The notes: generated by a model not told the origin, from the sequence alone. DNA of 64,000 nucleotides from an uncultured delta proteobacterium (GCA_963814585.1 CAWFDF010000008.1:480001-544000), one strand, 5' to 3'. Positions 13,339 through 47,473 are shown, numbered from the stretch's first letter. Translations and numbers: made by a program.

Positions 13339-15486
13339 CTACCCTGCCACCTCGGGCCACGGCTCTCCGACGACCACGTCCTCGATGATGGCCCCCACGT
13401 CGAGCACCAGCACGGTGGTCCGCCGTCCGAGGTCGGTCACGCCGGCGATCCCGCGAACGCCGGCCAGGATGCTGCCGAGCGGCTTGACCACGATGTCCTG
13501 CTGTCCCAGGAGCTCGTCCACGGCCAGCCCGAGGCGCTCCTGGGCCAGGCCGGTCACCACCACGTAGAGGGGATCCGGGGGCGGCCGGTCCCCGGCGGCG
13601 AAGAAGCGGCTGAGGCTCGTGAGTGGCAGCGTGGCACCACGAAGGCTGATCGCGTCGCGCGCCCCCACCGACCGGACGTCGGCGGCCCGCACCTCGAGGA
13701 GCTCCAGCACGCTGTTGAGCGGCACGGCGTAGGTGCGACCCGAGGCCTTGACCACCAGGGCCCGGATGATGGCCAGGGTGACCGGCAAGGTGATCTCGAA
13801 GCGGGTCCCGACGCCGCGCTCGGTGTTCAGGTCGATGATGCCGGAGAGCGCCGCGATGTTGTTCTTCACCACGTCCATCCCGACGCCACGGCCGGAGAGG
13901 CTGGTGACCTGGCGCGCCGTCGAGAAGCCTGGGACGAAGATCAGGTTCATCACCTCCCGCCGGGAGAGCCCCCGCACCGACTCGGCCGTGGCCAGCCCCC
14001 TGGCCACCGCGACCTCGCGGATCCGATCCTCGTCGATCCCGTTGCCATCGTCGGCCACCGACAGCTGCACGTGGTGGCCGCGCTGGACCGCGGCCAGGGT
14101 GATGTGACCCACCCGCGACTTGCCCTTCCTCTGGCGCACCTCGGGCCCCTCGATGGCGTGGTCGATGGCGTTCCGGATGAGGTGCATGAGCGGATCCGCC
14201 AGGTCCTCGACGATCAGCTTGTCGAGCTCCACCTCGCCGCCGGAGACCTCCAGCTCCACCTCCTTCCCCACCTCCCGGGCCAGCTTGCGCACCAGGCGGG
14301 TGAGCTTGTCGAAGACCTGGTCGAGCGGGACCATCCGGACCTCGAGGATCCCGCCCTGCAGCTCGGCCAGCCTCCGCTCCAGCCCGCGGCCGACCTGCTG
14401 GAGCTCGGCCACCAGCACCGGGTCGATCCCCTCGCCCTTGAAGCGCTCGGCGACCGACTGCAGCGAGCTCTTCACCAGCACCAGCTCGCCCACCACGTTC
14501 ATGAGCCGGTTGAGCTTCCGGATGTCGACGCGCACCGCCTGGGAGGCCGACCGGAGCGTGCCGGCGTCGGGCTCGGCGAGCGGCTCGGGGGCGGGCGAGA
14601 GCACCAGCGGGGCGGCGGACGGGGGATGGCTGGAGGGGGGCGCATCCGGCGGGGCGTCCACCTCGGCTGGCCGCTGGAGGGGGGCCCGCCTGGGGGCCCG
14701 GACCGGAGCGCCATCCGCGGCCGCCGTCGCGCCGGAGCCGCCGCCCAGGACCACCACCGGGTCGACCGCGGCGTGGGGGCCGGCCTCCAGCACCACGCTG
14801 GCGAGCGGCGCGGTGGTGGCCAGCAGCAGCTCGAAGGCGATGGTGGTCGGGTCCTTCATGTCGGCCGATGGGAGCGTCGACACCACCTCGCCCAGCTCCT
14901 TGAGCCGCGCCGAGAGGGCGGCCAGCTGCTCGTCGAAGGCCGTCAGCTCGAAGGCCACCCGGATCCGGAAGAGCCCCAGCCCCTTGCGCAGCGCCGCGCC
15001 CAGCCGGTGCTCCTCGTACTCGGTGAGGAGGCGGCGGATCTCCGGTCCGAGCGCCAGGCCGTCGAGCTCGGCGCCGACCGGAGGCGAGGACCCCCGCTCC
15101 TCGGCGCGGAGCCGCTCGGTGAGGCGCGCGGCGGCGTCCCGGGTGGCGTGTGGTGCGCCGGTGGCCTCCTCCGAGATGATACGGGAGAAGACCTCTGGCG
15201 CCTCGAGCAGCAGGTCGAGCGCGCCGGCGTCGAGCCGACGCCGCCCCAGGCGCAGGTCGTCGAGCGCATCCTCGAGCGCGTGGGCCAGCCGCGCCAGCCG
15301 CTCGACGCCAAACATCGACGACAGCCCCTTGAGCGAGTGGGCGGCGCGGAAGACCGAGTTGAGGACCTCGGGCTCGGGCTCGGCGCCCGCCCCTTCCAGC
15401 TGCATCAGCCCCTTGCCGAGCGCGTCGATGGTCTCCTGGGCCTCGGAGACGAAGTCGGAGAGCGCCTTCTGCGATCGGTCGGACAT
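13339..15486 (-). CDS. cheA: Chemotaxis histidine kinase CheA
   Basis: HPt FRAAHSLKG, VRVDIRKLNRLMN, HLIRNAIDHAIE, DDGNGID, GFST, GRGVGMDVV, C-terminal CheW-like domain; ATG at 15486. Confidence 0.95.
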   Translation of the reverse strand: MSDRSQKALSDFVSEAQETIDALGKGLMQLEGAGAEPEPEVLNSVFRAAHSLKGLSSMFGVERLARLAHALEDALDDLRLGRRRLDAGALDLLLEAPEVFSRIISEEATGAPHATRDAAARLTERLRAEERGSSPPVGAELDGLALGPEIRRLLTEYEEHRLGAALRKGLGLFRIRVAFELTAFDEQLAALSARLKELGEVVSTLPSADMKDPTTIAFELLLATTAPLASVVLEAGPHAAVDPVVVLGGGSGATAAADGAPVRAPRRAPLQRPAEVDAPPDAPPSSHPPSAAPLVLSPAPEPLAEPDAGTLRSASQAVRVDIRKLNRLMNVVGELVLVKSSLQSVAERFKGEGIDPVLVAELQQVGRGLERRLAELQGGILEVRMVPLDQVFDKLTRLVRKLAREVGKEVELEVSGGEVELDKLIVEDLADPLMHLIRNAIDHAIEGPEVRQRKGKSRVGHITLAAVQRGHHVQLSVADDGNGIDEDRIREVAVARGLATAESVRGLSRREVMNLIFVPGFSTARQVTSLSGRGVGMDVVKNNIAALSGIIDLNTERGVGTRFEITLPVTLAIIRALVVKASGRTYAVPLNSVLELLEVRAADVRSVGARDAISLRGATLPLTSLSRFFAAGDRPPPDPLYVVVTGLAQERLGLAVDELLGQQDIVVKPLGSILAGVRGIAGVTDLGRRTTVLVLDVGAIIEDVVVGEPWPEVAG

Positions 15487-29413: not shown

Positions 29414-29677
29414 CTACTCGCCGCCGGTGCCGGACCCGGCCGACCCGGCCCGTCCCAGCTCGTCGTGCTCGCCGTACCCCTGCAGGTCGAGCGCGATGGC
29501 CAGCAAGTAGAGGACCAGCGAGGCGATGCCGAGGGCCTGCCCGACGCTCATGGCGACCACCAGGAGCAGCGGCTGGGGGAAGATGATCGAGGCGACCATG
29601 AGGAACAGGGAGGTCAGGGTCGCGAAGATGGAGATGAGGACCAGCCTGCGGATGGTGAGCTTGGTGACGTTGAACAT
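29414..29677 (-). CDS. Small two-TM membrane protein
   Basis: Two hydrophobic segments; 3 nt after the cytochrome gene, GGAG upstream. Confidence 0.7.
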   Translation of the reverse strand: MFNVTKLTIRRLVLISIFATLTSLFLMVASIIFPQPLLLVVAMSVGQALGIASLVLYLLAIALDLQGYGEHDELGRAGSAGSGTGGE

Positions 29678-29680
29678 CGC

Positions 29681-30358
29681 CTACTCCTTCCTCTCGCCGG
29701 TGGGCGCCGGGGCCTTGCCGTTGCCGCCGTGGGCGAAGGCCCGCGGGTGGATCTGCTCGCCGGTGTGGCAGTCGAGGCACTTGGCCTGGCCCGTGCGGAG
29801 GTCCTCGATCGTGCCGGCGTGCTCCTCCACGGCCGACCAGCGGGGGGCCTGGGTGGAGTGGCAGCGGGTGCACATGACGTTCTCGAACTTCTTGTACATG
29901 TGGATGGGCTTGCCGCCCTCGCCGTACGGCCCGGTGTTGGAGTACTCGGTGATGTAGTAGAAGAGGTGCTTCATGCCGTTGGCCTTGGTGGTCATGGCCC
30001 CGAAGATCTGGTAGTCGGCGTGGCAGGTGTAGCAGGACTCGTGGCCGAAGGTGCTGTTCCGGCTGTGGATCGAGGCCAGCGACTTCGAGGCCGGGTCCGC
30101 CGCGTCCTCCACGTACGGTCGCATCACGTGGCACGAGCCGCAGAAGTCGCGCTTCAGCGTGTACTCGAAGCCGGAGATGTTGCCGGCCAGGGACACGGCC
30201 AGCGGCATCACCCCCAGGCCGAACAGCAGCACGACCTTGGCGGACCGGCCGAGCGGCGGGCGGGCCACGAGGTAATAGACCAGGATGGCGATGGCGATGG
30301 CGGCGGAGGCCAGCGCGGCCAGCCGGAGGACGTCTTCGGTCGTATGGATCTGGAACAC
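29681..30358 (-). CDS. Membrane-anchored tetraheme cytochrome c (NapC/NirT/NrfH-like)
   Basis: Two N-terminal TM helices, FCGSCHVM, CYTCH, CTRCH, CLDCH. Confidence 0.85.
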   Translation of the reverse strand: MFQIHTTEDVLRLAALASAAIAIAILVYYLVARPPLGRSAKVVLLFGLGVMPLAVSLAGNISGFEYTLKRDFCGSCHVMRPYVEDAADPASKSLASIHSRNSTFGHESCYTCHADYQIFGAMTTKANGMKHLFYYITEYSNTGPYGEGGKPIHMYKKFENVMCTRCHSTQAPRWSAVEEHAGTIEDLRTGQAKCLDCHTGEQIHPRAFAHGGNGKAPAPTGERKE

Positions 30359-33007: not shown

Positions 33008-34759
33008 ATGATGCCCTGTTCGCCCCGCTGGCTCGCCGCCACCGCCGCCGCGCTCGCCGCCCTCGGCTGCGTGCCCCAGCCGGTCTCGGGCTCGGCGCCA
33101 GTCGACACGGTGGTGTCACTCGGCGTGGTCGCGGCCGGCGGGCGGATCCCCCAGGCCTCCGGCCCGGTCACGCTCACGTTCGCCGGCTCGAGCGCCGGTC
33201 CGGGCGGTGTGCTGGCCCGCCGGTTCGCCGCCCCCCCGGCCCTCGACGGCGACGCCGCCGAGTGGTCCGGCTGGAGCGCCACCGACGTGCCCCTGGCGCC
33301 GCCCGGGCAGGCCGCCGGGCTGTCGGCGGCGGGCTGGTACTGCCGCTGGAGGACCCACCACAGCCAGGTGATCGACCCGGCCACCGGCCTCACCTTCTGC
33401 CCCACCCCCTGCAACCCCGATGCGCCGCCGGCCAGCGCCGCGGATGGCTCGGCCGGCTGCTCGGCGCCGCTCCCGCCCTTCGACCACGGCGTGGCCAGCA
33501 TCCAGGTGCGCGCGGGCTTCGACGACCAGGACCTCTACCTGCTGCTCCAGTGGAGCGCGCCGTCCCGGCACGACGTCCACCAGCCGTGGACCTGGGACGC
33601 GGCCGGGGCGGCCTGGCGCCAGGATCGGAGCCAGTCGGAGGACGCCGCCTACGTCGCCTTCGCCGTGGGGGAGAGCGCGCCGGCCCACGCCAAGCGCGGG
33701 TGCGCCACCGCCTGCCACGTCGCCGCGGCCCCCACGATCCTGGTCCCGCCCGTGCCGGCCCCCGCGCCCTGGCCGCCCGCCAGCTACCTCGCCAGCTTCT
33801 CCTGCCGGACCGGCGCGGAAGGCGAGCGGCTCGACGCCTGGACCTGGCGTGCCGCCTCGACCGCCCCCTATGGCCTGGCCGACGATCTCCGCATCGAGGC
33901 CGGCGGCCCGGCCGGCGACCGCTGCCAGGCGACCGACGGCATCACCTGCTCGAGGGCCTGCACGGCGCAGGACGGGTTCGGCCAGTTCGTCTACCCGTGC
34001 AGCCGAGGCACGGCCACGGTCAACCTCGCCGCTGGCCTGGCCGGCCAGCCGGGCCAGCCCTTCGCCCGGGCGGCCGGCGGCGGGGGCGGCGACTTCTCGC
34101 TCAACCCCCCCTACCTGTTCCGCCAGCCCGTCGATCCCGAGCCCGGCTGGGACCCGCGCTACCTCGCCTCGCCCCCGCCGCCACCGCTCGGCACCACCCC
34201 GGTGGCGCTCGCGCCGCCCTCCGATGCCGGTCCGTACACCCTCCCCGGCTTCGTGCTCCATCGCCCCAGCCCTCACCGGGACGACGTGCGGGCCGGGGCT
34301 CGCTGGGCCAACGGCGTCTGGACGCTCGAGCTGGCCCGGCGGCGCGTGACCGGCGACGCCGACGACGCCCAGCTCCAGCCCCGGAAGGGCGGCGCGACGG
34401 GGGGCGGAGGTGGGAGCGGCGCCTACTCGACCATCAGCGCCACCATCTTCGTGCCCCGCTGCGCCACCAGCGCGTGCCACTCCGGAGGGCCGCCGCCGCC
34501 CAGCGGGGTCCCGGTCTCGCTCGACGCCGACGTCGGCTGGTCGCAGCTGGTCTCGGTCCCCTCGGTCCAGGCACCGCTGATCCTCGTCGAGCCCGGCCAG
34601 CCCGGGCGGAGTTACCTGGTCAACAAACTTCGGGGATCCCACTCTTCCGTGGGAGGATTGGGGAACGTGATGCCTCCGCCAGCGGCGGGGGCGCCACTCA
34701 CCGAGGAGGAGATCCTGTCCATCGAGGCCTGGATCCGGAGCGGAGCACCCCGTGACTGA
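33008..34759 (+). CDS. Lipoprotein: DOMON-like (ethylbenzene dehydrogenase gamma-type) domain fused to a cytochrome c domain
   Basis: Lipobox LAALGC; PALDGDAAEW, AGFDDQDLYLLLQW, GCATACH, LDAWTW, GVWTLELAR; Gly linker; IFVPRCATSACH...VEPGQPGRSYL...MPP...IEAWIRSGA. Confidence 0.7.
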   Translation: MMPCSPRWLAATAAALAALGCVPQPVSGSAPVDTVVSLGVVAAGGRIPQASGPVTLTFAGSSAGPGGVLARRFAAPPALDGDAAEWSGWSATDVPLAPPGQAAGLSAAGWYCRWRTHHSQVIDPATGLTFCPTPCNPDAPPASAADGSAGCSAPLPPFDHGVASIQVRAGFDDQDLYLLLQWSAPSRHDVHQPWTWDAAGAAWRQDRSQSEDAAYVAFAVGESAPAHAKRGCATACHVAAAPTILVPPVPAPAPWPPASYLASFSCRTGAEGERLDAWTWRAASTAPYGLADDLRIEAGGPAGDRCQATDGITCSRACTAQDGFGQFVYPCSRGTATVNLAAGLAGQPGQPFARAAGGGGGDFSLNPPYLFRQPVDPEPGWDPRYLASPPPPPLGTTPVALAPPSDAGPYTLPGFVLHRPSPHRDDVRAGARWANGVWTLELARRRVTGDADDAQLQPRKGGATGGGGGSGAYSTISATIFVPRCATSACHSGGPPPPSGVPVSLDADVGWSQLVSVPSVQAPLILVEPGQPGRSYLVNKLRGSHSSVGGLGNVMPPPAAGAPLTEEEILSIEAWIRSGAPRD

Positions 34760-35900
34760 CCGAAGCGCCCGGCGGCTGGCCGCGTCGCTGGTCGTGGCCG
34801 CGGCCGCGCTGGGAGCGGCGCGCGCGGTGGCCGCCCCCAGCCTCCAGTTCTCGGGATCGGCCTACGTCGACGGCTGGGTCATCCCCACCCAGCAGCCCGA
34901 CGCCGACCAGGTGAAGGCGCCGCAGGGGATCACCATCGACGCCTCGATGCGGTTCGGCGTCGACATCCACGACACCCTCTCCTTCTCCGCCAAGGCCTGC
35001 ATCAGCTGCCACGGGATCGAGATGGACCACGTCATGCTCGACTGGCAGCCCAAGCCCTGGTTCAACGCCCAGTTCGGCCGGCTCAGCGTCCCGTTCGGCG
35101 AGTACGCCAACCGCATCGACCAGTCCGGCCACAAGACCACCTCGGCGCCGCTGATCTACGACATGGGGCGGATGGCCTACGCCGACCGGACCTCCTTCAA
35201 CTCCGGCGTGATCATGCTCCCCTACGTCGACACCGGCCTGATGGTCTACGGCACGACCTGGCTGGGGAGCGTGCTGCAGGTCTGGTACTCCGGCTACGCC
35301 GTCTCCGGCCTCAAGGGCACCAACGACCTGGAGTGGATGGCGCTCCGCACCTCCCCTTACGCCGACAACAACAAGACCCCCTCCTACGGCGGCCGCGTCG
35401 CCGTCACCTACTCGAGCGACCCGGGGGACGCCATCGGCGACGTCAGCCTCGGGGGCAGCTACACGGGAGGCCGCTACGATCGCGACGCCCTGCTCCGCTA
35501 CCAGGTGGCCGGCGCCGACCTCTCCATCCAGCTCTGGAAGGTCACGCTGCGCGGCGAGTACGCCATCCGCAGGACCGACCTCGATCCCGACGCCACCGGC
35601 TACCAGTGGGCCCTGGTGGACGGGTACTTCGACAAGCGGGGGTACTACGCGGAGCTGGAGCACCCGCTGGGGCGTTACCTCGCCATGGTCTACCGCTACG
35701 ACAAGCTGGAGCGGATCGGCGTCCCGCTCCCGGGCTCTGTGGCGAACATGACCCCGGAGACCGCCATCGAGCGGTTCACCGCCGGCACCGTCATCACGCC
35801 GGTCTCGGGGATGTACCTGAAGCTGTCGTACGAGTACTGGAAGCCGACCAGCTTCGTGGTGTTCCATTCGGGCCACGTCGGCATGGGGGGGGCATTCTGA
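34752..35900 (+). CDS. Outer-membrane beta-barrel (OprO/P-like features) containing a CxxCH motif
   Basis: Signal peptide, alternating beta-strand patterns, GRLSVPFG, DNN, terminal Phe, CISCH near the N-terminus. Confidence 0.7.
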   Translation: MTDRSARRLAASLVVAAAALGAARAVAAPSLQFSGSAYVDGWVIPTQQPDADQVKAPQGITIDASMRFGVDIHDTLSFSAKACISCHGIEMDHVMLDWQPKPWFNAQFGRLSVPFGEYANRIDQSGHKTTSAPLIYDMGRMAYADRTSFNSGVIMLPYVDTGLMVYGTTWLGSVLQVWYSGYAVSGLKGTNDLEWMALRTSPYADNNKTPSYGGRVAVTYSSDPGDAIGDVSLGGSYTGGRYDRDALLRYQVAGADLSIQLWKVTLRGEYAIRRTDLDPDATGYQWALVDGYFDKRGYYAELEHPLGRYLAMVYRYDKLERIGVPLPGSVANMTPETAIERFTAGTVITPVSGMYLKLSYEYWKPTSFVVFHSGHVGMGGAF

Positions 35901-36235
35901 TGAACTTCACGCTCGTGGTGCTGCTGGTCGCGGCGCTCGCCGTCGGGGCCAAGGACCCGTCCAAGGCGGAGTGGGATCCGCGAGACGACGGCCCGGACAA
36001 GATCGACGTCTCCTCGTGGCCGCCGGCCATGCAGAAGCGCTACCCGGTCTTCGCCGGCAAGTGCTCCAAGTGCCACCCGGTGGCGCGGCCCATCAACTCC
36101 CGCTTCGACGCCACGGAGTGGAAGCGCTACATGAAGAAGATGATCCGCCGCCCCAACTCGGGCATCAACGAGGAGCAGGCGGCCGACATCTACGAGTTCC
36201 TCAAGTACTACTCCAGCCACCAGGGGGCCAGGTAG
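35900..36235 (+). CDS. Small exported monoheme cytochrome c
   Basis: Signal peptide MNFTLVVLLVAALAVGA, KCSKCH, WKRYMKKM; ATG overlaps the preceding TGA. Confidence 0.85.
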   Translation: MNFTLVVLLVAALAVGAKDPSKAEWDPRDDGPDKIDVSSWPPAMQKRYPVFAGKCSKCHPVARPINSRFDATEWKRYMKKMIRRPNSGINEEQAADIYEFLKYYSSHQGAR

Positions 36236-38112
36236 TGCTGGAGAGGATCACCAACTCCCTCCGGCTCCGGCTGCAGGCCGCCACCCTGGTGCTGGTCGCC
36301 GGCGCGCTGCTGGTGGCCGCCTTCGGCTTCGACTGGGTGGCCCGCGGCGTGGTCGAGGCCGCCGTCCAGGACCACCTGCAGGCCCGCTCCCGGGAGGTCC
36401 ACGAGGCGGTGCTGCGCTTCCAGCGCGAGCGCGCCCTCACCGTCAGGAGCTGGGCCGAGGCCGAGGCGATGCAGCTCACCCTCGACTCCGGCGATCCCAA
36501 GTTCGTCGAGGACTTCCTCCGCCGGCTCATCCAGGACCAGGGCGGCTCGATCGCCGCCGTCGCGCTGACCGGGCCGGACGGGACGCTGCTGGCCGGAGTC
36601 CGCGCCGCGGCGGTGGGCGAGCGGCGCGGCCTGGCGCTGGCCTCGCAGCACGGCCGGCGGCTCGAGCTCCGCGTGGTGGAGCGGGCCCTGAACGACGACC
36701 CCGACGGCGTCCAGCTCGGGACCCTCGCGCAGCTCGACGAGGAGGGCGGCGACGAGCCGGTGATCCTGGTGGCCTCGCCGGTGCGCGACTTCGCCAGCGA
36801 CATCGTCGGGACGGTGGTGGCGGCCATCTCCACCAAGGCCATGCGCCGCCTCCTCGACGAGATCGGCGGAGCCGACGGCGACCTGGTGCCGGTGGTCTAC
36901 GACGCCGACCGCGCGCTGGTGCTGGTCCCGCCGGGCGTCGACGGGCGACTCATCGACCCGGTGGTCGCCATGGCGGCCCGGCCTGGCGTTCTGGAGCGGA
37001 CCGCGCCTCCGGGCGCCGCGCCGCTCCTCTCGGTGCGGACCGGAGCCGCCCTCAACCCGCCCCGGTGGACCGCCGCCATGGTCGAGCCCGAGGCCTCGGC
37101 CTACGGCCAGCTCGGCTCGCTCCGCCTCCTGCTCACGGTCCTCTTCGGGGCGGTGCTGGCGGGGGCCGGCCTGGCCAGCGTGGGCGCGCTGCGCGCCGCC
37201 GCCCGCCCGCTCTCGGAGGTGACCGGGTCGATGGCTCGCGTCGCCCAGGGCGACCTCTCGACCCGCATCCCCGGCAACTACTCGGACGAGCTCGGCGCCC
37301 TGGTCGGCTCCTTCAACACCATGGTGGCCGAGGTGGCCCGCTCCCGCGGCGAGCTGCAGCGGACCGAGGCGCTGCGCAAGGAGGTCCAGATCGCCCACCG
37401 CATCCAGACGGCCATCCTGCCCAACAGCCCGGCCGTTCCGGGCTACGAGGTGGCGGCGCGGATGAAGCCGGCCGAGGACGTGGGCGGAGACCTCTACGAC
37501 ATCCTCTCCTTCCCCGAGACCTTCTGGGTCCTGGTGGGGGACGTCTCCGGCCACGGCATCAACTCCGGGCTGGTGATGATGATGGCCCAGGCGGCCGCCT
37601 ACGGGACCATCGCCGACGATCCCAGCCGCGACCCGCGCGACGTGGTCTCGGCGGTCAACCGCGTGGTGCACGAGAACGTCCGGCAGCGGATGGGCCGGGA
37701 CGACTACCTCACCCTCATGGCCGCCCGCCACATGGGCGGGGGCCGCTTCGTCGCGGCCGGCGCCCACCAGCCCATCTTCATCGCCCGCGGTGGTGGCACG
37801 GTCGACGTGATCGAGCCGGCCGGCCCGTGGGTCGGGCTGACGGCCGACCTCTCCTCGCAGATCGTGTCCTACGAGTTCCAGCTCGGCCCCGGCGACGCCG
37901 TCTGCTTCATCACCGACGGCGTGGTCGAGGCCCAGGACTCGGAGGGGACGCTCTTCGGCGAGGACCGCCTCACCGAGCTCCTCCGCGCCGAGCACCCCGC
38001 CTCGGCCGCCGAGATCCTCACCCAGGTGTTCAAGGACGTTGAAGCACACGCCGCCACGCAGGCGGACGACATCACCGCCGTGGTCCTGAGACGGAAGACA
38101 CATGACGACTGA
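36235..38112 (+). CDS. Membrane PP2C/SpoIIE (RsbU-like) phosphatase with periplasmic sensor and HAMP domains
   Basis: Two TM segments, HAMP (GDLSTRI..DELGAL..FNTM), VGGDLYD, VGDVSGHG, ITDGVVEA, ADDITAVV; GTG at 36235. Confidence 0.92.
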   Translation: MLERITNSLRLRLQAATLVLVAGALLVAAFGFDWVARGVVEAAVQDHLQARSREVHEAVLRFQRERALTVRSWAEAEAMQLTLDSGDPKFVEDFLRRLIQDQGGSIAAVALTGPDGTLLAGVRAAAVGERRGLALASQHGRRLELRVVERALNDDPDGVQLGTLAQLDEEGGDEPVILVASPVRDFASDIVGTVVAAISTKAMRRLLDEIGGADGDLVPVVYDADRALVLVPPGVDGRLIDPVVAMAARPGVLERTAPPGAAPLLSVRTGAALNPPRWTAAMVEPEASAYGQLGSLRLLLTVLFGAVLAGAGLASVGALRAAARPLSEVTGSMARVAQGDLSTRIPGNYSDELGALVGSFNTMVAEVARSRGELQRTEALRKEVQIAHRIQTAILPNSPAVPGYEVAARMKPAEDVGGDLYDILSFPETFWVLVGDVSGHGINSGLVMMMAQAAAYGTIADDPSRDPRDVVSAVNRVVHENVRQRMGRDDYLTLMAARHMGGGRFVAAGAHQPIFIARGGGTVDVIEPAGPWVGLTADLSSQIVSYEFQLGPGDAVCFITDGVVEAQDSEGTLFGEDRLTELLRAEHPASAAEILTQVFKDVEAHAATQADDITAVVLRRKTHDD

Positions 38113-38623
38113 ACCCATCGAATCCAGCCGACCCATCTACCTGATGCTGCGCATGAAGCCGCCCTGGGTCTTCGTCGACGAGATCCGGCGCTTCGTGGAG
38201 TCCTTCTGCGCCTGCGCCTGCCCCGGCCAGACCCGCGAGGCCCAGGTGGCCCTGGCGGTCCACGAGCTGATGCAGAACGCCATCCCGCACGCCGCCGGGG
38301 AGAGCGTCGACCTGACCTTGCAGGTCGACCCCATCGCCGACCGGATCGAGATCGCGGTCTCCAACCCGGCCACCGCGGAGCAGTTCCAGGACGTCAAGAA
38401 CCGGCTCGACCGGATCAACGGCGAGCCCGACCCCTTGCAGAGCTACCTGCGCGCCATGGCGGAGGCGCCCATGAACCAGCGCGGCGGCCTCGGCCTGGCG
38501 CGGGTCCGCTTCGAGGCCCAGCTCGATCTCTCCATCACCCGCGAGGGGAACCGGATCACGGTCCTCGCCTGGGGCCGCCTCCGCGCGCCCCAGATCCAGG
38601 CACCCGGAGGTACCCATGGTTAA
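38102..38623 (+). CDS. RsbW/SiaB-like GHKL Ser/Thr kinase
   Basis: HELMQNA (N box), GGLGLAR (G box); lies between the PP2C and STAS genes. Confidence 0.75.
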   Translation: MTTEPIESSRPIYLMLRMKPPWVFVDEIRRFVESFCACACPGQTREAQVALAVHELMQNAIPHAAGESVDLTLQVDPIADRIEIAVSNPATAEQFQDVKNRLDRINGEPDPLQSYLRAMAEAPMNQRGGLGLARVRFEAQLDLSITREGNRITVLAWGRLRAPQIQAPGGTHG

Positions 38624-39017
38624 CCCCCCGTCCCCGCCCGGCGCACGCGCGCCGGCCATCCAGGTCTCGGAGGAGAAGTACTCGGCGTCGATGCACGCGG
38701 ATCCGATGGGCGCCCGCGTCCACTTCCGCGGCACCATCAGCACGGTCAACCCCGCCAGCGTGCTCAACCCGTTCGTCGACCAGGTCCACGACCACCTGAT
38801 CAAGAACGGCGCCAAGTCCGTCCGCGTCGACTTCACCGAGCTGGAGTTCTGCAACTCGTCCGGCTTCAAGAGCTTCATCTACTGGATCCAGAAGATCCAG
38901 GCGGCCGGCGACAAGCAGTACCGGCTTCGCTTCATCTCCAGCCCGGCGCGCAAGTGGCAGCGGACCAGCCTGCTGGCCCTCTCCTGCTACAGCCCGAGCG
39001 CGGTCGAGATCGGCTAG
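38616..39017 (+). CDS. STAS-like anti-anti-sigma factor / phospho-acceptor protein
   Basis: VDFTELEFCNSSGFKSF matches the STAS D.S.l.f.dSsG motif; KWQRTSL tail. Confidence 0.75.
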   Translation: MVNPPSPPGARAPAIQVSEEKYSASMHADPMGARVHFRGTISTVNPASVLNPFVDQVHDHLIKNGAKSVRVDFTELEFCNSSGFKSFIYWIQKIQAAGDKQYRLRFISSPARKWQRTSLLALSCYSPSAVEIG

Positions 39018-39039
39018 CGCCTCGACGACCCGGCACCGC

Positions 39040-39073
39040 GAAGGGGTCCGCTCCTCCGGGAACGGACCCCTTC
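39040..39073. terminator. Hairpin between convergent operons
   Basis: GAAGGGGTCCG...CGGACCCCTTC inverted repeat. Confidence 0.7.
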
Positions 39074-39112
39074 CTCGTCGGAGGCCCGGGCGGCGCCGAG
39101 GCGCCGCCACCC

Positions 39113-42100
39113 CTACATCAGGCCCGGCTTGCCCGCCTGCCAGCGCTTGAGCTCGGTGGTGAGCAGGTCGACGTGCTCCTTCTCCTCGGCCGCCAGCTCC
39201 CGGTAGAGCTGCTTCTCCGGTGAGCCCGCCGCCACCGCGGCGCCGCGCTCGGTGAAGAACTTCACGGCACGCTCCTCGAAGGCGATGGCGATGCGGAACA
39301 GGTTGGCCGGGTCCTCCGGCCGGTTGGGGATGCCGGCGTAGATGGCCGCCCGGTCGACCTTGAAGTCGCCCGCGGCCGGGACCTGCACGTGGTAGCGGCG
39401 CGAGAGCGTCGCCATGTGCTCCTTCTCCATCTCGGCGAAGCGGCCGAAGAGCTCGCGGAGCATCGGGTCAGCGGCCTCCTGCGCGGCCCGGCCGTAGAAG
39501 GCCATCCCGCCCAGCTCGATCTCGAAGGCGATGCGGACCGCCTCGAGCGCGGCCGCGTCGGCCACCTTGGCGGGATCGGCCACGGCGAGCTTGCCGCCGC
39601 AGGCCGGGCACATCCCGTAGGGGAAGGCGAAGCCCTCGCTCACCTTGGCGCAGTCCTGGCACTTCCAGGAGAGCTTGGCGGTGGCGCAGCAGACGTACTC
39701 CTCCTCGCCCTCGAGCGGCTGCCGGCACTTCGGGCAGAGCTTCCCGGCGGTGGTCGCCGCCGGAGCCGACGGCGGAGGCGCCGGCCGCTGGCGGCGCCCA
39801 GCGGGGCGGGTGGCGTGAAGGTGCTCATGTCGTCCTCGGTGATGGGCCACTTCTGCTTCTTGCCCTTCAGGTAGGCGCCGATGGAGCGGGCCGCCCGGCG
39901 CCCGGCCCCCATGGCCAGGATCACCGTGGCGCCGCCGGTGACGATGTCGCCACCGGCGAAGACGCCCGGCAGCGAGGTGCACTGGGTCTTGCCGTCGTCG
40001 GCGACGATGTTGCCCCACTTGTTGAGGGCCAGGCCCGGGGTCGACTGGGTGATGATGGGGTTGGCCTTGGTGCCGAGCGCGTAGATGACGGTGTCGCACT
40101 CGAGGTCCTTGAAGCGGCCGGTGGCGATGGGCTTGCGGCGCCCCTTCTCGTCCGGGTCGCCGAGGACCATCTCCTCGACCTTCATCCCCTTCACGTTGCC
40201 GTCGGGGTCCACGTAGATCTCCACCGGCGAGTGGAGGAAGAAGAACTCGATCCCCTCCTCCTTGGCGTGGCGGAGCTCCTCGATGCGGGCCGGGGCCTCG
40301 GCCTCGGTGCGCCGGTAGACGCAGCGGACCGTCTCGGTGCCGAGCCGCTTGGCGACGCGCAGGCAGTCCATGGCGGTGTTGCCGGCGCCGATGACCACGG
40401 CGCTCTTGCCGATGGAGACCGGCGTGTCCTTGAGCGGGAACTGGTCGCCGCCCATGAGGTTGACGCGGGTGAGGAACTCGTTGGCCGAGTAGACCTGCCC
40501 GGCGAACTCGCCGGGGATGCCGAGGAAGGCCGGGGCGCCGGCGCCGACGCCGAGGAAGACCGCGTCGTAGCCCTTCTCGCCCATGAGCTGCGGCACCGTG
40601 AAGGTCTTGCCGATGACCTTGTTGGTCTCGATCTTGACGCCCAGGTCCACCAGGCTGCTGCACCTCGCGGTCGATGATGTCGCGCGGCAGGCGGAAGGAG
40701 GGGATGCCGTAGCGGAGCACGCCGCCGACCACGTGGAGCGCCTCGTAGACGGTGACGTCGCAGCCGAACTTCACCAGGTCGGCCGCCACCGCCAGGCCGG
40801 CCGGGCCGGAGCCGCAGACCGCCACCCTGCCGAGCTTGTCGGCGGGGGCGAAGACCGGCGGGACCGCCGGCTTGAGCTTGCCGTTGTCGCCGACGAAGCG
40901 CTCGAGGCGGCCGATGCCGACCGACTCGACCTTCTTGGCGATGACGCACTGGGCCTCGCACTGCGTCTCCTGCGGGCAGACGCGGCCGCAGACCGACGGG
41001 AAGATGGAGGCCTCGTGGATCACCTCGAGGGCCCCGTCGATGTCGCGCACCACCAGGTGGCGGATGAAGCGCGGGATGTCGATGGCCACCGGGCAGCCGG
41101 CGATGCAGGTCGGCTTGGCGCACTGGATGCACCGCTCGGCCTCGAGGAGGGCGTCCTGGAGCGAGTAGCCCAGGTTGACCTCCTTGAAGTTGCGGGAGCG
41201 CTCCACGTGGTCGCGCTCCGGCATCTTGGCCTGGTGCGGGGTCAGCTCCTTGATCTTCCTGTAGTTGCGCTTGTTCTCCTCGAAGAGCTGCTTCTCCAGG
41301 TTGCAGACGTGGGCGTAGTCCTCGGTGGCCGTGGTCTCCTGGGCCTTGAACCGCTTCTGCCGGGCCAGCAGCTCCTTGAAGTCGACCAGGTGGCCGTCGA
41401 AGTCCGGGCCGTCGACGCAGGCGAACTTCACGTCCTTGTTGACGGTGACGCGGCAGGAGCCGCACATGCCGGTGCCGTCCACCATGATGGCGTTGAGCGA
41501 GACCATGGTCTTCACGCGCGAACGGGCGGGTGGTCTCGACGCAGGCGTTCATCATGGGCAGCGGCCCGATGGCCACCGCCAGGTCCGGCTTGTCCTTCTC
41601 GCAGAGCTCCTTGAGCGCCTGGGTGACGAAGCCGGGCTTGCCGTAGCTGCCGTCGTCGGTGCAGACGATCAGCTCGTCGCAGTACTTCGCGGAACTTGTC
41701 CTCCCAGAAGACCAGGTCCTTGTTGCGGAAGCCGATGATGCCGGTGACGCGGTTGCCGGCCTCCTTGAAGGCGCGCAGCTGCGGGTAGACCGGGGCCACG
41801 CCGAGGCCGCCGCCCACCAGCACCACGTGGCCGACCTTGCCGACGTGCTGCGGCAGGCCGAGCGGGCCGACGAAGTCCTCGAACTCGTCGCCCTGCTTGT
41901 AGTCCGTCATCATCTGGCGCGTGGTCTTGCCGAGCGCCTGGATGACCATGGTGATGGTGCCGGCCTCGCGGTCGAAGTCGGCGACCGTGAGCGGGATGCG
42001 CTCGGAGTCGCCGCCGAGCCGGAGCATGACGAAGTGTCCCGGTTCCGCGGCCTTGGCCACGTCGGGGGCATGGACATCCCAGAGGAACGTCGTGTCGGAG

Positions 42101-42129
42101 AAGGCCTCGCGGCGGACGATCTTGTACAT
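39113..42129 (-). CDS. NfnA-NfnB (SudB-SudA/GltD-like) fusion with C-terminal zinc ribbons and a rubrerythrin/ferritin-like domain; apparent frameshifts ~41690, ~41517, ~40655, ~39780
   Basis: ERIPLTVAD, GGGLGVAP, MVDGTGMCGSC..CVDGP; CIQCAKPTCIAGCP, CGRVCPQETQCE, GSGPAG, GAGNTAMD, FAGGDIVTGGATVILAM; CPKC, CQDC, CPAC; two EKEH motifs. Confidence 0.85.
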
Positions 42130-45108: not shown

Positions 45109-47473
45109 CTACGGCGCGGGCCCGCGCGGCCGCCGACGCAGCGCCTGGGCCTCGTCGGCCTTCCCCTGCCGCAGGTAGACCTCCAGCAGCAGGCCGTCGG
45201 TCTCCGGGTAGGCCGGATGGGCCTGCCGCAGCGCCTCCAGCGTCCGCTCGGCGCCGGCCAGGTCGCCGGAGCGCGACTGGTAGAAGGCCAGCGTCCAGGC
45301 GTACCGCGGCTCCTCGGGACGCAGCGCGGCAGCCCGCTGCGACAGCGAGAGCGCCTCGGGAAGTCGCCGCTGAGCCACCAGCACCGCCAGGTTGAAGGCG
45401 GCGGCGGCCAGGTCCGGGTCGGCGGCCAGCGCCTCACGCAGCGCCCGCTCCGCCTCGTCAGGCTTGCCCGCCTCGGCCAGCAGCAGCCCGAGGTTGAAGG
45501 CGAGGCCGGCCTGCCGGGGCTGAGCGGCGTGGGCCTCCCGGAGCAGCTTCTCGGCCTCGTCGAGGCGTCCTCGGGCGGCCAGCAGCATCGCCAGGTTGGC
45601 CTTGGCCATGAAGAGCTGGTCGTCGATGGCGAGCGCTCGCCGGTACTGCACCTCCGCGTCGGCCGGGCGGGAGAGCGTGGTGTAGAGGTTGCCGAGGTTG
45701 TAAGGACCCGAGGGCAGGTCGGACATGTAGCGCTGCGCGGCGACGTACTCGTCGAGTGCCGCGGCGTGCGCCGTGCGCTGGGGCCCGGTGAGCAGCAGCG
45801 CCGGCGGGCCGGCCAGCCGGGCCGCGGCCTCGGCGCGGACGGCGCGGACCGGGTCCTGCAGCAGCGGCGCCAGCAGCCGCGCCAGGACGGCCGGATCCGT
45901 GACCGGCAGCCGCTGCGCCGCCGTGACCCGCACCAGCGGCTCGCCGTCTGCGAGCGCCTTCTCCAGCGCCGCCCGGCTCCCCTCGCCCCGGTAGCCGCCC
46001 AGCAGCTCGACGGCGGTGGCGCGCGCCACCATGGGCCGGAGCTGGTCTCCCGCCAGCTGGACCAGCGCCAGCTCGGCCCCGGGCGACCCCGTGCGTCCCT
46101 CGGCGAGGACCGTCCCGTAGTGCGGCTTGCGCTGCTGGCCATACCAGCCGTCGTAGCGGGCCTGCACCCAGGACGCCGGCTTGCCGGCGTGGCACCCGGA
46201 GGCGGCGCAGGCGTTCGGGACGCCCAGCGAGGTGGTCAGGTCGGGTCGCGGCACGCGCATGGAGTGGTCGCGCCGGAAGTGGACCACCATGAAGTCCTTC
46301 CCCGGCATGTGGCAGGAGACGCAGCGCCACGCCGGCGCTGGGCTTTCCCTGCCAGGTGGCCTTGTGGAAGTGGTGCGATGGCGCATCGTAGGTGTCGGGC
46401 CGGTGGCAGCGGGTGCAGAGGTCGTTCCCCTCCTTGAGCCGCTTGCCGGAGTGGACGTCGTGGCAGTCGCTGCATCGCACGCCGCTGGCGAACATCTTGC
46501 TCTGCGTGAAGGCGTGCCACTCGAAGTCCTCGTCGAGGATCTGGCCGTCGGGGTGGAAGGTGCCCGGGGTGAGCAGGGTGGGCAGGTAGCGGTCGAGCAG
46601 CTCGCCGCCCGGCGTCCCCTGGTCGGCGAACTGGGCCCGCCGTGCGTGGCAGGGGGCGCAGAGCCCGACCAGTTCCCCGCCGGCCAGCCTCGAGGTGCGG
46701 GTGACCAGCGCGGCGTTCTCCACGGCGGGCCGCCCCATCGCCGGCTGGTCGGCCCAGGCCACGTGACGCGAGCCGGGGCCGTGGCAGGCCTCGCAGCCGA
46801 CCATGATCTCCGACCAGGTGGTCTGGTACTCGTCCTTCTCCGGGTCGTAGCGCTTGCGCACCGCGGTGGAGTGGCAGTCGGCGCACATGGCGTTCCAGCC
46901 CTGCCCGGCGCGGGTCCAGTGGAGCCAGTCGCCGGGCGGTGCGTCGGGGCCGGGGTTGACGTAGAACCAGCGCCTCGCGGTGGTGTCCCAGGCCGCCGAG
47001 AGGCACTGCAGCCGCCCGCCGGGGAAGGCCACCAGGTACTGCTGCAGCGGGGCGACGCCGAAGGTGTAGGCCACCTCGTAGTCGTGCAGCGCGCCGTCCG
47101 GCCCCTCGGCGTTGACCATGAACTTCTCGCCCAGGCGGAAGAAGCGCCAGGTCTTGCCGCGGTGCCTGAAGGATGCACCGCCGAAGTCGCCGAGCACCGT
47201 GGCGTCGCGGGCTGCCTGCATGGCCTGGGCGTGGTGCGAGCCCTTCCACCCGTCGTAGGCCTTCTGGTGGCAGGCCCTGCAGCGTTCGCTGCCGACGTAC
47301 TGCGGCTCACCGGGCGGCGCGGTGCGCGGGCCGCGGGCGGCGTGGACCGCCAGGTGGATCGGGATGGAGAGGGCGATGGCCGCGGTGGCGACCAGGCCGG
47401 CGGCGCGCCAGCGGCGCAGCGACTGGCCGGGGCCGTTGCCGTCCGGGGCGGAGGTGGAGGGAGGTGTCGCCAT
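45109..47473 (-). CDS. Membrane-anchored octaheme cytochrome c with HEAT and TPR repeats; apparent +1 frameshift ~46327
   Basis: CRACH, CADCH, CEACH, CAPCH, CSDCH, CTRCH, CVSCH, CAASGCH; RRDHSMRVPRPDL; C-terminal YNLGNLY/FNLGLLL TPRs. Confidence 0.85.

Follow-up and report, generated by a model that had tools for sequence, protein, structure and literature searches.

A conserved Anaeromyxobacteraceae gene cluster joining cytochromes and a heme-motif porin to phospho-switch genes: a candidate trans-envelope redox-sensing relay

The window analysed here is the whole 64,000-nucleotide stretch of DNA from an uncultured delta proteobacterium (GCA_963814585.1 CAWFDF010000008.1:480001-544000), and the subject of this report is a six-gene cluster within it at 33008-39017. 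The cluster places genes for a predicted lipoprotein cytochrome, a barrel with a heme motif and a small cytochrome c (g1-g3) ahead of genes for a membrane phosphatase, a putative GHKL-type kinase and a STAS-like protein (g4-g6; Table 1). All six reading frames lie on the + strand, are open, have a G and C content at third codon positions (GC3) of 0.93-0.98 and overlap their neighbours by 1-11 nt, which confirms the overlapping array drawn in a preliminary description of this DNA made from the sequence alone. The source genome is 91.7% complete, contains a single copy of the cluster and has its relatives among the Anaeromyxobacteraceae. PADLOC assigns none of the six proteins to a family. A sigma-70 promoter scan of 31-41 kb, which does not cover other promoter types, returns no site, including near 36.2 kb, where an internal promoter had been considered an argument against a single unit. 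On the 3' side, g6 is followed by a hairpin and then by a convergent oxidoreductase gene. The region 39018-39112 folds with a z score of -4.29, none of 200 shuffled sequences being equally stable. The hairpin had been described as closing the cluster; its stem is real and stable, but it lacks a U-tail and no site appears in the terminator scan, and it is possibly either a terminator or an RNA-stabilising stem.

Table 1. Features of the six-gene cluster and neighbouring features in the window
Feature	Position	Strand	Description	Overlap with next gene
g1	33008..34759	+	583-aa predicted lipoprotein; Cys21, imperfect lipobox	8 nt (34752-34759)
g2	34752..35900	+	382-aa predicted 16-strand OprP-like porin	1 nt (35900)
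g3	35900..36235	+	111-aa predicted periplasmic monoheme cytochrome c; C55, C58, H59, Met81	1 nt (36235)
g4	36235..38112	+	625-aa predicted inner-membrane sensor phosphatase	11 nt (38102-38112)
g5	38102..38623	+	173-aa GHKL-type (RsbW/SiaB/slr1658-like) putative Ser kinase	8 nt (38616-38623)
g6	38616..39017	+	133-aa STAS-like (SiaC/slr1659-like) putative switch protein	
Hairpin	39040-39073		11-bp perfect stem without U-tail, between g6 and the convergent downstream gene	
Oxidoreductase gene	39116-42129	-	DHODB Fe-S, Fer4_20 and Pyr_redox_2 domains; five frame pieces	
NapC/NirT-type gene	29414-30358	-	Tetraheme cytochrome gene and small membrane ORF	
Multiheme cytochrome gene	45109-47473	-	Split over two frames	
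tRNA-like gene	15213-15304	-	ARAGORN prediction; unassigned four-base anticodon (cgag)	

The linkage of these genes was assessed in two samples that overlap and are not additive, namely 31 GTDB loci found with g2 and 92 genomes of the family. Among the 31 loci, g3 lies directly 3' of the barrel gene in 30, a CX4CH domain precedes the barrel in 29 (the other two start at a contig edge), and the order barrel-g3-sensor-GHKL-STAS is found in 25; the EB_dh-CX4CH fusion seen in g1 occurs in six. A STAS match is present in 40 of the 92 family genomes and a barrel match in 45. The two are colinear in 35 genomes, with a gap of 2,715-2,784 nt, so that linkage of heme genes to switch genes in other genomes, on which the preliminary description had staked its proposal, is observed in 35 of the 40 STAS-positive genomes. 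Two of the remaining genomes break at contig ends inside g4, and in one (G096) the sole STAS is distant and lies in another context. The other two carry the phosphatase-kinase-STAS trio away from the barrel, either with its own g3 between two barrel genes (G095) or with g3 at a contig end where no barrel was found (G028); the g3 gene is still immediately 5' of the trio in both. Chance adjacency or an assembly artefact is ruled out by the conserved order in 25/31 loci and 35/40 genomes. Cultured strains with five or six of the six genes are Anaeromyxobacter (A.) oryzae Red232, A. oryzisoli SG63, PSR-1, A. terrae SG22 and A. soli SG29, and the barrel is also present in A. dehalogenans 2CP-C, 2CP-1 and strain K.

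The conserved core consists of the CX4CH lipoprotein domain, the heme-motif barrel and the small cytochrome c. In the barrel protein g2, C83, C86 and H87 (window 34998-35012) form a CxxCH motif that is invariant in 24/24 aligned orthologs and present in all 120 homologs listed. An AlphaFold2 model built with 143 sequences has 16 strands (pLDDT 96.4, pTM 0.92), and its best solved match is OprP (2o4v; Z 27.6, rmsd 3.0, 301 aligned). The motif occupies mature residues 56-60, after strands 1 and 2 and at the end of strand 3. Because long loops follow the odd strands, it is predicted to sit at the outer end of strand 3 and in loop 2, an outward placement taken from strand parity and not from coordinates. 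The long loop 3, beside the motif, holds the conserved Met138 and Met141, which are candidate distal ligands; the motif may bind heme covalently, with His/Met ligation, and cytochrome c assembly genes are present in the source genome. Pfam and NCBIfam hold no family for g2, and searches of PDB sequences returned no meaningful match for the barrel, g1, g5 or g6. A cytochrome-porin structure is absent from the VIA and Foldseek lists for the barrel, which excludes nothing, and two runs of complex prediction with the barrel, g3, three hemes and the C-terminal domain of g1 both scored 0.00, which carries no weight either way. In two barrel relatives (L062 7046-11375 and L116 7489-12619) a single Cys and a His replace CxxCH; these barrels still adjoin PSCyt/CX4CH-like and g3-like genes and are possibly an intermediate or a heme b form.

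The lipoprotein g1, which would be lipidated and exposed at the cell surface, contributes only its C-terminal domain to the core. Its N-terminal EB_dh-family domain (residues 159-461; PF09459, 70.6 bits against a cut-off of 33.3) carries CX3CH at 232-237, and its C-terminal monoheme-type domain carries CX4CH at 485-491 with the invariant Met555. The CX3CH is invariant in 12/12 aligned EB_dh domains, and CX4CH with the Met is found in 21/21 aligned C-terminal domains. The preliminary description had counted about four heme c motifs. Four are indeed present, but only those of the barrel and the small cytochrome are canonical CxxCH, those of g1 being CX3CH and CX4CH. The outer partner of the core varies. 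In the 29 loci that have a CX4CH domain, this domain is fused to EB_dh in six, is truncated in one, has a separate adjoining EB_dh gene in two and has no such partner in three. It is fused to a decaheme cytochrome in eight further loci, and a decaheme gene lies alongside in nine (five divergent, four downstream, one of these split). This range of inputs points to the CX4CH domain as an adaptor for docking, located on the side of MtrC-type proteins. One locus has two tandem decaheme-CX4CH fusion genes before one barrel (L036 2014-7930) and another has a second multiheme-CX4CH gene upstream (L033 1745-7912), suggesting alternative inputs to one porin.

The CxxCH and Met81 of g3 are invariant in 22/22 sequences. 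Its C-terminal half is basic, with a net charge of +5 to +8 in 22/22. Its best PDB match is 3a9f (E 0.0019). In many of 150 distant representatives the barrel is preceded, within one protein, by a g3-like domain (hmm E 4e-17 and 3e-16; the hhalign values are 96.6% for g3 and 100% for the barrel), and this places g3 at the periplasmic face. The distant relatives named as bearing such fusions are Planctomycetes, in which the barrel CxxCH is kept in 19/19 and 11/11 sequences; barrels from Myxococcota through to Planctomycetes keep both CxxCH and the loop-3 Met. A BBP7 porin gene lies 3' of the Planctomycete-type fusion in four of 27 metagenome loci (L138, L140, L150, L170).

The remaining three genes resemble a partner-switching module. 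The g4 protein comprises a transmembrane (TM) segment at 18-36, a periplasmic domain with a predicted dCache fold, a second TM segment at 298-316, a HAMP domain at 320-366 and a SpoIIE/PP2C domain at 429-621. SpoIIE (PF07228, 130.9 bits) and HAMP both exceed the Pfam cut-offs, and the membrane sensor PP2C phosphatase recognised earlier is thereby upheld. It is the sole strong SpoIIE match in the source genome, and the four Asp motifs (D419, D436, D561 and D611 in g4) are present in 30/30 PP2C ORFs examined. The periplasmic domain matches dCache sensors (best E 4.9e-10), and its helical tip is more conserved than its PAS cores (mean 0.88 versus 0.56 and 0.57); the tip is acidic in 28/28 sequences. 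For g5, the GHKL kinase assignment stands as far as HATPase_c_2 (33.5 bits against a cut-off of 27.4) and the invariant N box (HELMQN) and G2 box (GGxG) are concerned, but the DxG of the G1 box is absent, its Asp being replaced by an invariant Asn88 in 17 sequences; kinase activity is predicted from these motifs. The g6 protein is likewise best termed STAS-like, with an invariant LEFCNSSGFK and NSSG in 17/17 sequences but with STAS, SiaC and slr1659 matches that are all under their cut-offs. Ser81 is its predicted phosphosite because the NSSG motif aligns with the SiaC phosphopeptide around T68, N-T68 of SiaC facing N-S of g6 (PMC7647112).

Outside the family the barrel occurs with other signalling genes. 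Of 301 Myxococcota genomes, 87 gave a match to a barrel profile, and 40 of the stronger loci outside Anaeromyxobacteraceae were examined, 39 of which have the CxxCH. Ten show the CX4CH-barrel order, and in eight of these a membrane Ser/Thr kinase gene stands between barrel and g3, giving EB_dh-CX4CH-barrel-Ser/Thr kinase-g3. One of the other two ends at a contig edge, and the last (L078) encodes a fusion of g3 with a YfiR/HmsC-like domain (Atlas 0.93, DUF4154). YfiBNR is built from an outer-membrane lipoprotein, a periplasmic relay and an inner-membrane enzyme with a periplasmic PAS-like sensor, its output being cyclic di-GMP (c-di-GMP); the layout is like that of the cluster, but YfiBNR has no hemes or porin. 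Of the 13 loci from family f14, which have DUF7482, a PSCyt-like lipoprotein, g3 and the barrel with parts missing in places, 12 include a co-directional kinase, and a chemoreceptor gene lies immediately upstream in four Anaeromyxobacteraceae loci that have no trio in the flank fetched. Between the two kinase groups that were compared, identity is 29-33%, against 52-72% inside each group, and all 11 kinases tested have one TM segment. The background to these pairings is at least 65-138 kinases per genome, or about one per 70-97 kb in two genomes, a lower bound on density.

In a quick tree, which leaves out 20 redundant or partial loci, the different outputs fall on separate barrel clades. One of them, the type-D clade (family f6), has 16 loci (L087, L088, L099-L104, L106-L111, L117 and L118) with a barrel and, in most, a cytochrome of two g3-like domains after it. 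A conserved kinase gene is found on the opposite strand in 12 of these loci, which is why the clade is not counted as support; of the others, one has a co-directional kinase and three have none adjacent. The close STAS subfamily is confined to Anaeromyxobacteraceae among the 301 genomes, and the distant STAS matches in f6 are not beside barrel matches.

Membership of the Cyc2, Mtr/Pcc or SiaABCD systems was considered and is ruled out on defining features. Cyc2 shares with g2 a predicted 16-strand OprP/OprO-like barrel and a single CxxCH (10.1101/228056), together with a periplasmic-side monoheme partner that is fused to the barrel in the Planctomycete relatives of g2. Its CxxCH, however, lies in an N-terminal domain ahead of the barrel rather than on strand 3 and loop 2, and the AXPXFAR motif upstream of it (10.1101/228056) is absent in 271/271 g2-type sequences checked; the cluster also adds an outer lipoprotein cytochrome and signalling genes. 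MtrCAB of Shewanella and Pcc of Geobacter and Anaeromyxobacter share the order outer lipoprotein cytochrome, porin, periplasmic cytochrome, and some Pcc outer cytochromes have atypical CX3-4CH motifs, as here (PMC4245776). True OmcA/MtrC-family decahemes are carried by relatives of the cluster but are absent from the cluster in the window. MtrCAB wraps a 26-strand sheath around a decaheme, whereas g2 is a small 16-strand barrel with its own heme motif, and the periplasmic partners in MtrCAB and Pcc have 5-14 hemes compared with one CxxCH in g3. Anaeromyxobacter Pcc is a two-gene set of a porin and a 12-14-heme cytochrome, and GM18_3465, a 21-strand porin with 10 loop heme motifs, has an architecture unlike that of g2 (PMC4245776). 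Of the porin families in these comparisons, the profile search covered MtrB.

The switch genes resemble SiaABC(D) of Pseudomonas aeruginosa and RsbU/V/W in combining a membrane PP2C with HAMP, a small GHKL-type putative kinase and a small STAS-like putative target (PMC7647112). The present cluster differs in having heme and porin genes upstream and no SiaD-like diguanylate cyclase or sigma factor within it; the source genome has nine GGDEF matches, none of them near the cluster. Scores for SiaA, SiaC and slr1658/9 all fall short of their cut-offs (SiaA equivalog 75.9 against a cut-off of 700). A link of slr1658 to recovery from iron starvation is described in Synechocystis (PMC7555055). In E. 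coli, apo-TorC binds and inhibits the periplasmic domain of TorS (PMC8534201), a case of a cytochrome c acting on a periplasmic sensor domain that is only proposed for g3 and g4; unlike g3, TorC is a membrane-anchored respiratory pentaheme that acts in its apo form and without an outer-membrane step. Congregation of Shewanella requires Mtr/OmcA and a Cache chemoreceptor, and outer-membrane cytochromes serve external redox sensing there, as is proposed here, but through a general respiratory conduit and an unlinked chemoreceptor rather than a dedicated operon (PMC5789149).

A literature search covering sources other than subscription papers and supplements found no description of the cluster, in keeping with the earlier statement that no characterised operon joins a heme porin set to a phospho-switch. 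The portions covered of PMC2330069 and PMC3831638 do not mention it, and a term look-up in PMC10654088 and PMC13741234 finds no mention of Myxococc or Anaeromyxobacter. The cluster is apparently a real, conserved and undescribed system.

With somewhat better than even confidence, we read the cluster as a dedicated trans-envelope relay informing the signalling machinery inside the cell of the redox state outside it. The starting points are the observed gene content and overlap, the conservation of heme motifs and PP2C Asp residues, the linkage, and the exchange of inputs and outputs among relatives; from these we infer the contacts, the electron flow and its direction, the stimulus and the heme attachment. 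Electrons would pass between the predicted surface lipoprotein cytochrome g1 and a heme that is likely attached to the porin wall, and the porin would hand them to the small periplasmic cytochrome g3. The redox or docking state of g3 could then tune the g4 phosphatase through the tip of its dCache domain, and g4 and the opposing kinase g5 would set the phosphorylation of g6 at Ser81. The best evidence for such a sensory wire is that the core is recurrently paired with different signalling proteins. The conserved linkage, the fusions of g3-like domains to the barrel, the conserved acidic sensor tip set beside a basic g3, and the TorC-TorS and Shewanella precedents also speak for it. The preliminary description had also proposed a signalling wire; its linkage holds and other signalling partners occur in the phylum, but its appeal to a low heme count is weak.

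A broader, more tentative version falls slightly below an even chance. The core would then be a modular heme wire, built around a porin with heme on its own wall and constituting a new class of trans-envelope signalling in Myxococcota. The modules plugged into it, a proposal we hold with the same reserve, would be an MtrC-type decaheme, EB_dh or DUF7482 partner on the outside and a PP2C switch, one of two kinase groups, a chemoreceptor or a YfiR-like domain on the inside.

Several observations weigh against a sensory relay. Myxobacteria are rich in kinases, and because the loci are related the counts above amount to some four to five independent pairings instead of dozens. The conserved dCache tip could be a dimer interface, and dCache domains commonly bind small ligands. 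A barrel match without a STAS match is found in 7 of the 45 barrel genomes of the family, one of which (G093) keeps decaheme, barrel and g3. Planctomycete-type fusions have one signalling protein (RsbRD_N-STAS, L142) among 93 neighbouring ORFs in the 27 metagenome loci (29 of 62 loci were long enough; 4 of 97 ORFs were excluded as duplicates or mis-calls; E cut-offs 1e-8 and 1e-10), so the barrel-cytochrome unit functions without a neighbouring sensor. It looks as if this unit is general and its coupling to signalling a speciality of Myxococcota. An OmcA/MtrC-type decaheme is fused (8) or adjacent (9) to the core in 17/31 loci, and 5/5 decahemes tested exceed the OmcA/MtrC (TIGR03507) cut-off, as would be expected of a true electron conduit. 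The low heme count fails in these relatives, which undercuts the earlier argument that so few hemes could not be respiratory.

The findings on Planctomycetes and decahemes fit an explanation in which the heme proteins are a minimal conduit for respiration or electron uptake, Cyc2-like in function and often with an MtrC-type decaheme outside, while the co-transcribed switch regulates the conduit or the same physiological state and does not read the hemes. So do the OprP-like 16-strand scaffold also predicted for Cyc2 (10.1101/228056), the persistence of the heme genes without the switch in G093, and the source genome itself, which has no match to the MtrB family (PF11854) at 91.7% completeness, yet holds three decaheme ORFs outside the cluster. 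We nonetheless regard a conduit as rather unlikely: the core has no quinol dehydrogenase or multiheme periplasmic carrier, the slot beside g3 or the barrel is repeatedly occupied by different membrane signalling proteins, and the trio retains its own g3 when apart from the barrel. The distance from a heme on the outer wall to a periplasmic heme, gauged without coordinates, would also be a long gap that fits slow signalling better than flux. The barrel could instead let through a particular small molecule (an anion, a gas or a metal) under gating by, or binding to, heme, the dCache domain sensing the molecule directly and the cytochromes processing or buffering it. Its nearest solved fold is the phosphate channel OprP, the sensor fold resembles amino-acid and carboxylate receptors, and the EB_dh-family domain of g1 could bind a substrate. 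Barrel relatives without CxxCH also stand beside kinases (L065, L066), and that of L065 (genome G056) immediately precedes a kinase that shares 57-58% identity with the type-B kinases; a barrel lacking the heme motif can thus still be paired with a kinase, a further point against a heme relay. A channel is quite improbable, however, given that conservation in the sensor is lowest in the PAS cores, where dCache pockets form, that CxxCH and the loop-3 Met persist as far as Planctomycetes, and that the input slot is interchangeable with a decaheme. Least probable is that the switch monitors assembly, with apo or undocked g3 binding the sensor and reporting heme supply or envelope state. The fusion of g3 to a YfiR-like domain in L078 would suit this role, YfiR being a partitioning periplasmic inhibitor, as would the resemblance of g3 to the C-terminal domain of TorC, which is weak (E 0.0032, far under cut-off). 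A precedent is provided by apo-TorC and TorS (PMC8534201), but assembly monitoring leaves unexplained why variable outer inputs (EB_dh, decaheme, DUF7482) are kept with the cassette.

Other redox genes lie near the cluster. The NapC/NirT-type gene with its small membrane ORF is about 2.6 kb upstream of g1 on the opposite strand; a gene of this type is also near the cluster in L021, L023 and L025 and is not found there in more distant relatives. The downstream oxidoreductase, presumably NfnAB-like, is a single 1,003-aa ORF in L023, to which the pieces are 90-97% identical. Its frame breaks are probably assembly indels, the six-gene cluster itself being intact, and another indel likely splits the multiheme cytochrome gene. 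The tRNA-like gene is possibly a tRNA-Ser or tRNA-Leu with an indel. The source genome has 55 six-frame ORFs with at least three CxxCH, some of them alternative frames. Elsewhere in the genome, a 3,118-codon ORF on contig C14 (170279-179632, - strand) has 58 CxxCH, and other ORFs have 42, 42, 30, 29 and 28, the last of which begins near the end of the window (C8:540103).

How cells sense the redox state of insoluble acceptors that cannot be imported is an open question, and the Shewanella model considered here is indirect and runs through a respiratory conduit. The cluster offers a compact, genetically defined candidate for direct redox sensing with a simple readout, the phosphorylation of one Ser. 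Even if the signalling reading fails, the unannotated porin family with its heme motif on the barrel wall would add another way of combining cytochrome and porin to those of Cyc2 and Mtr/Pcc. If the reading is true, such a relay would provide a small set of parts for electrode-to-gene-expression control. If the core is indeed a modular wire, which we judge a little short of evenly balanced, Myxococcota may sense directly, and apart from respiration, what redox potential minerals, electrodes or neighbouring cells present.

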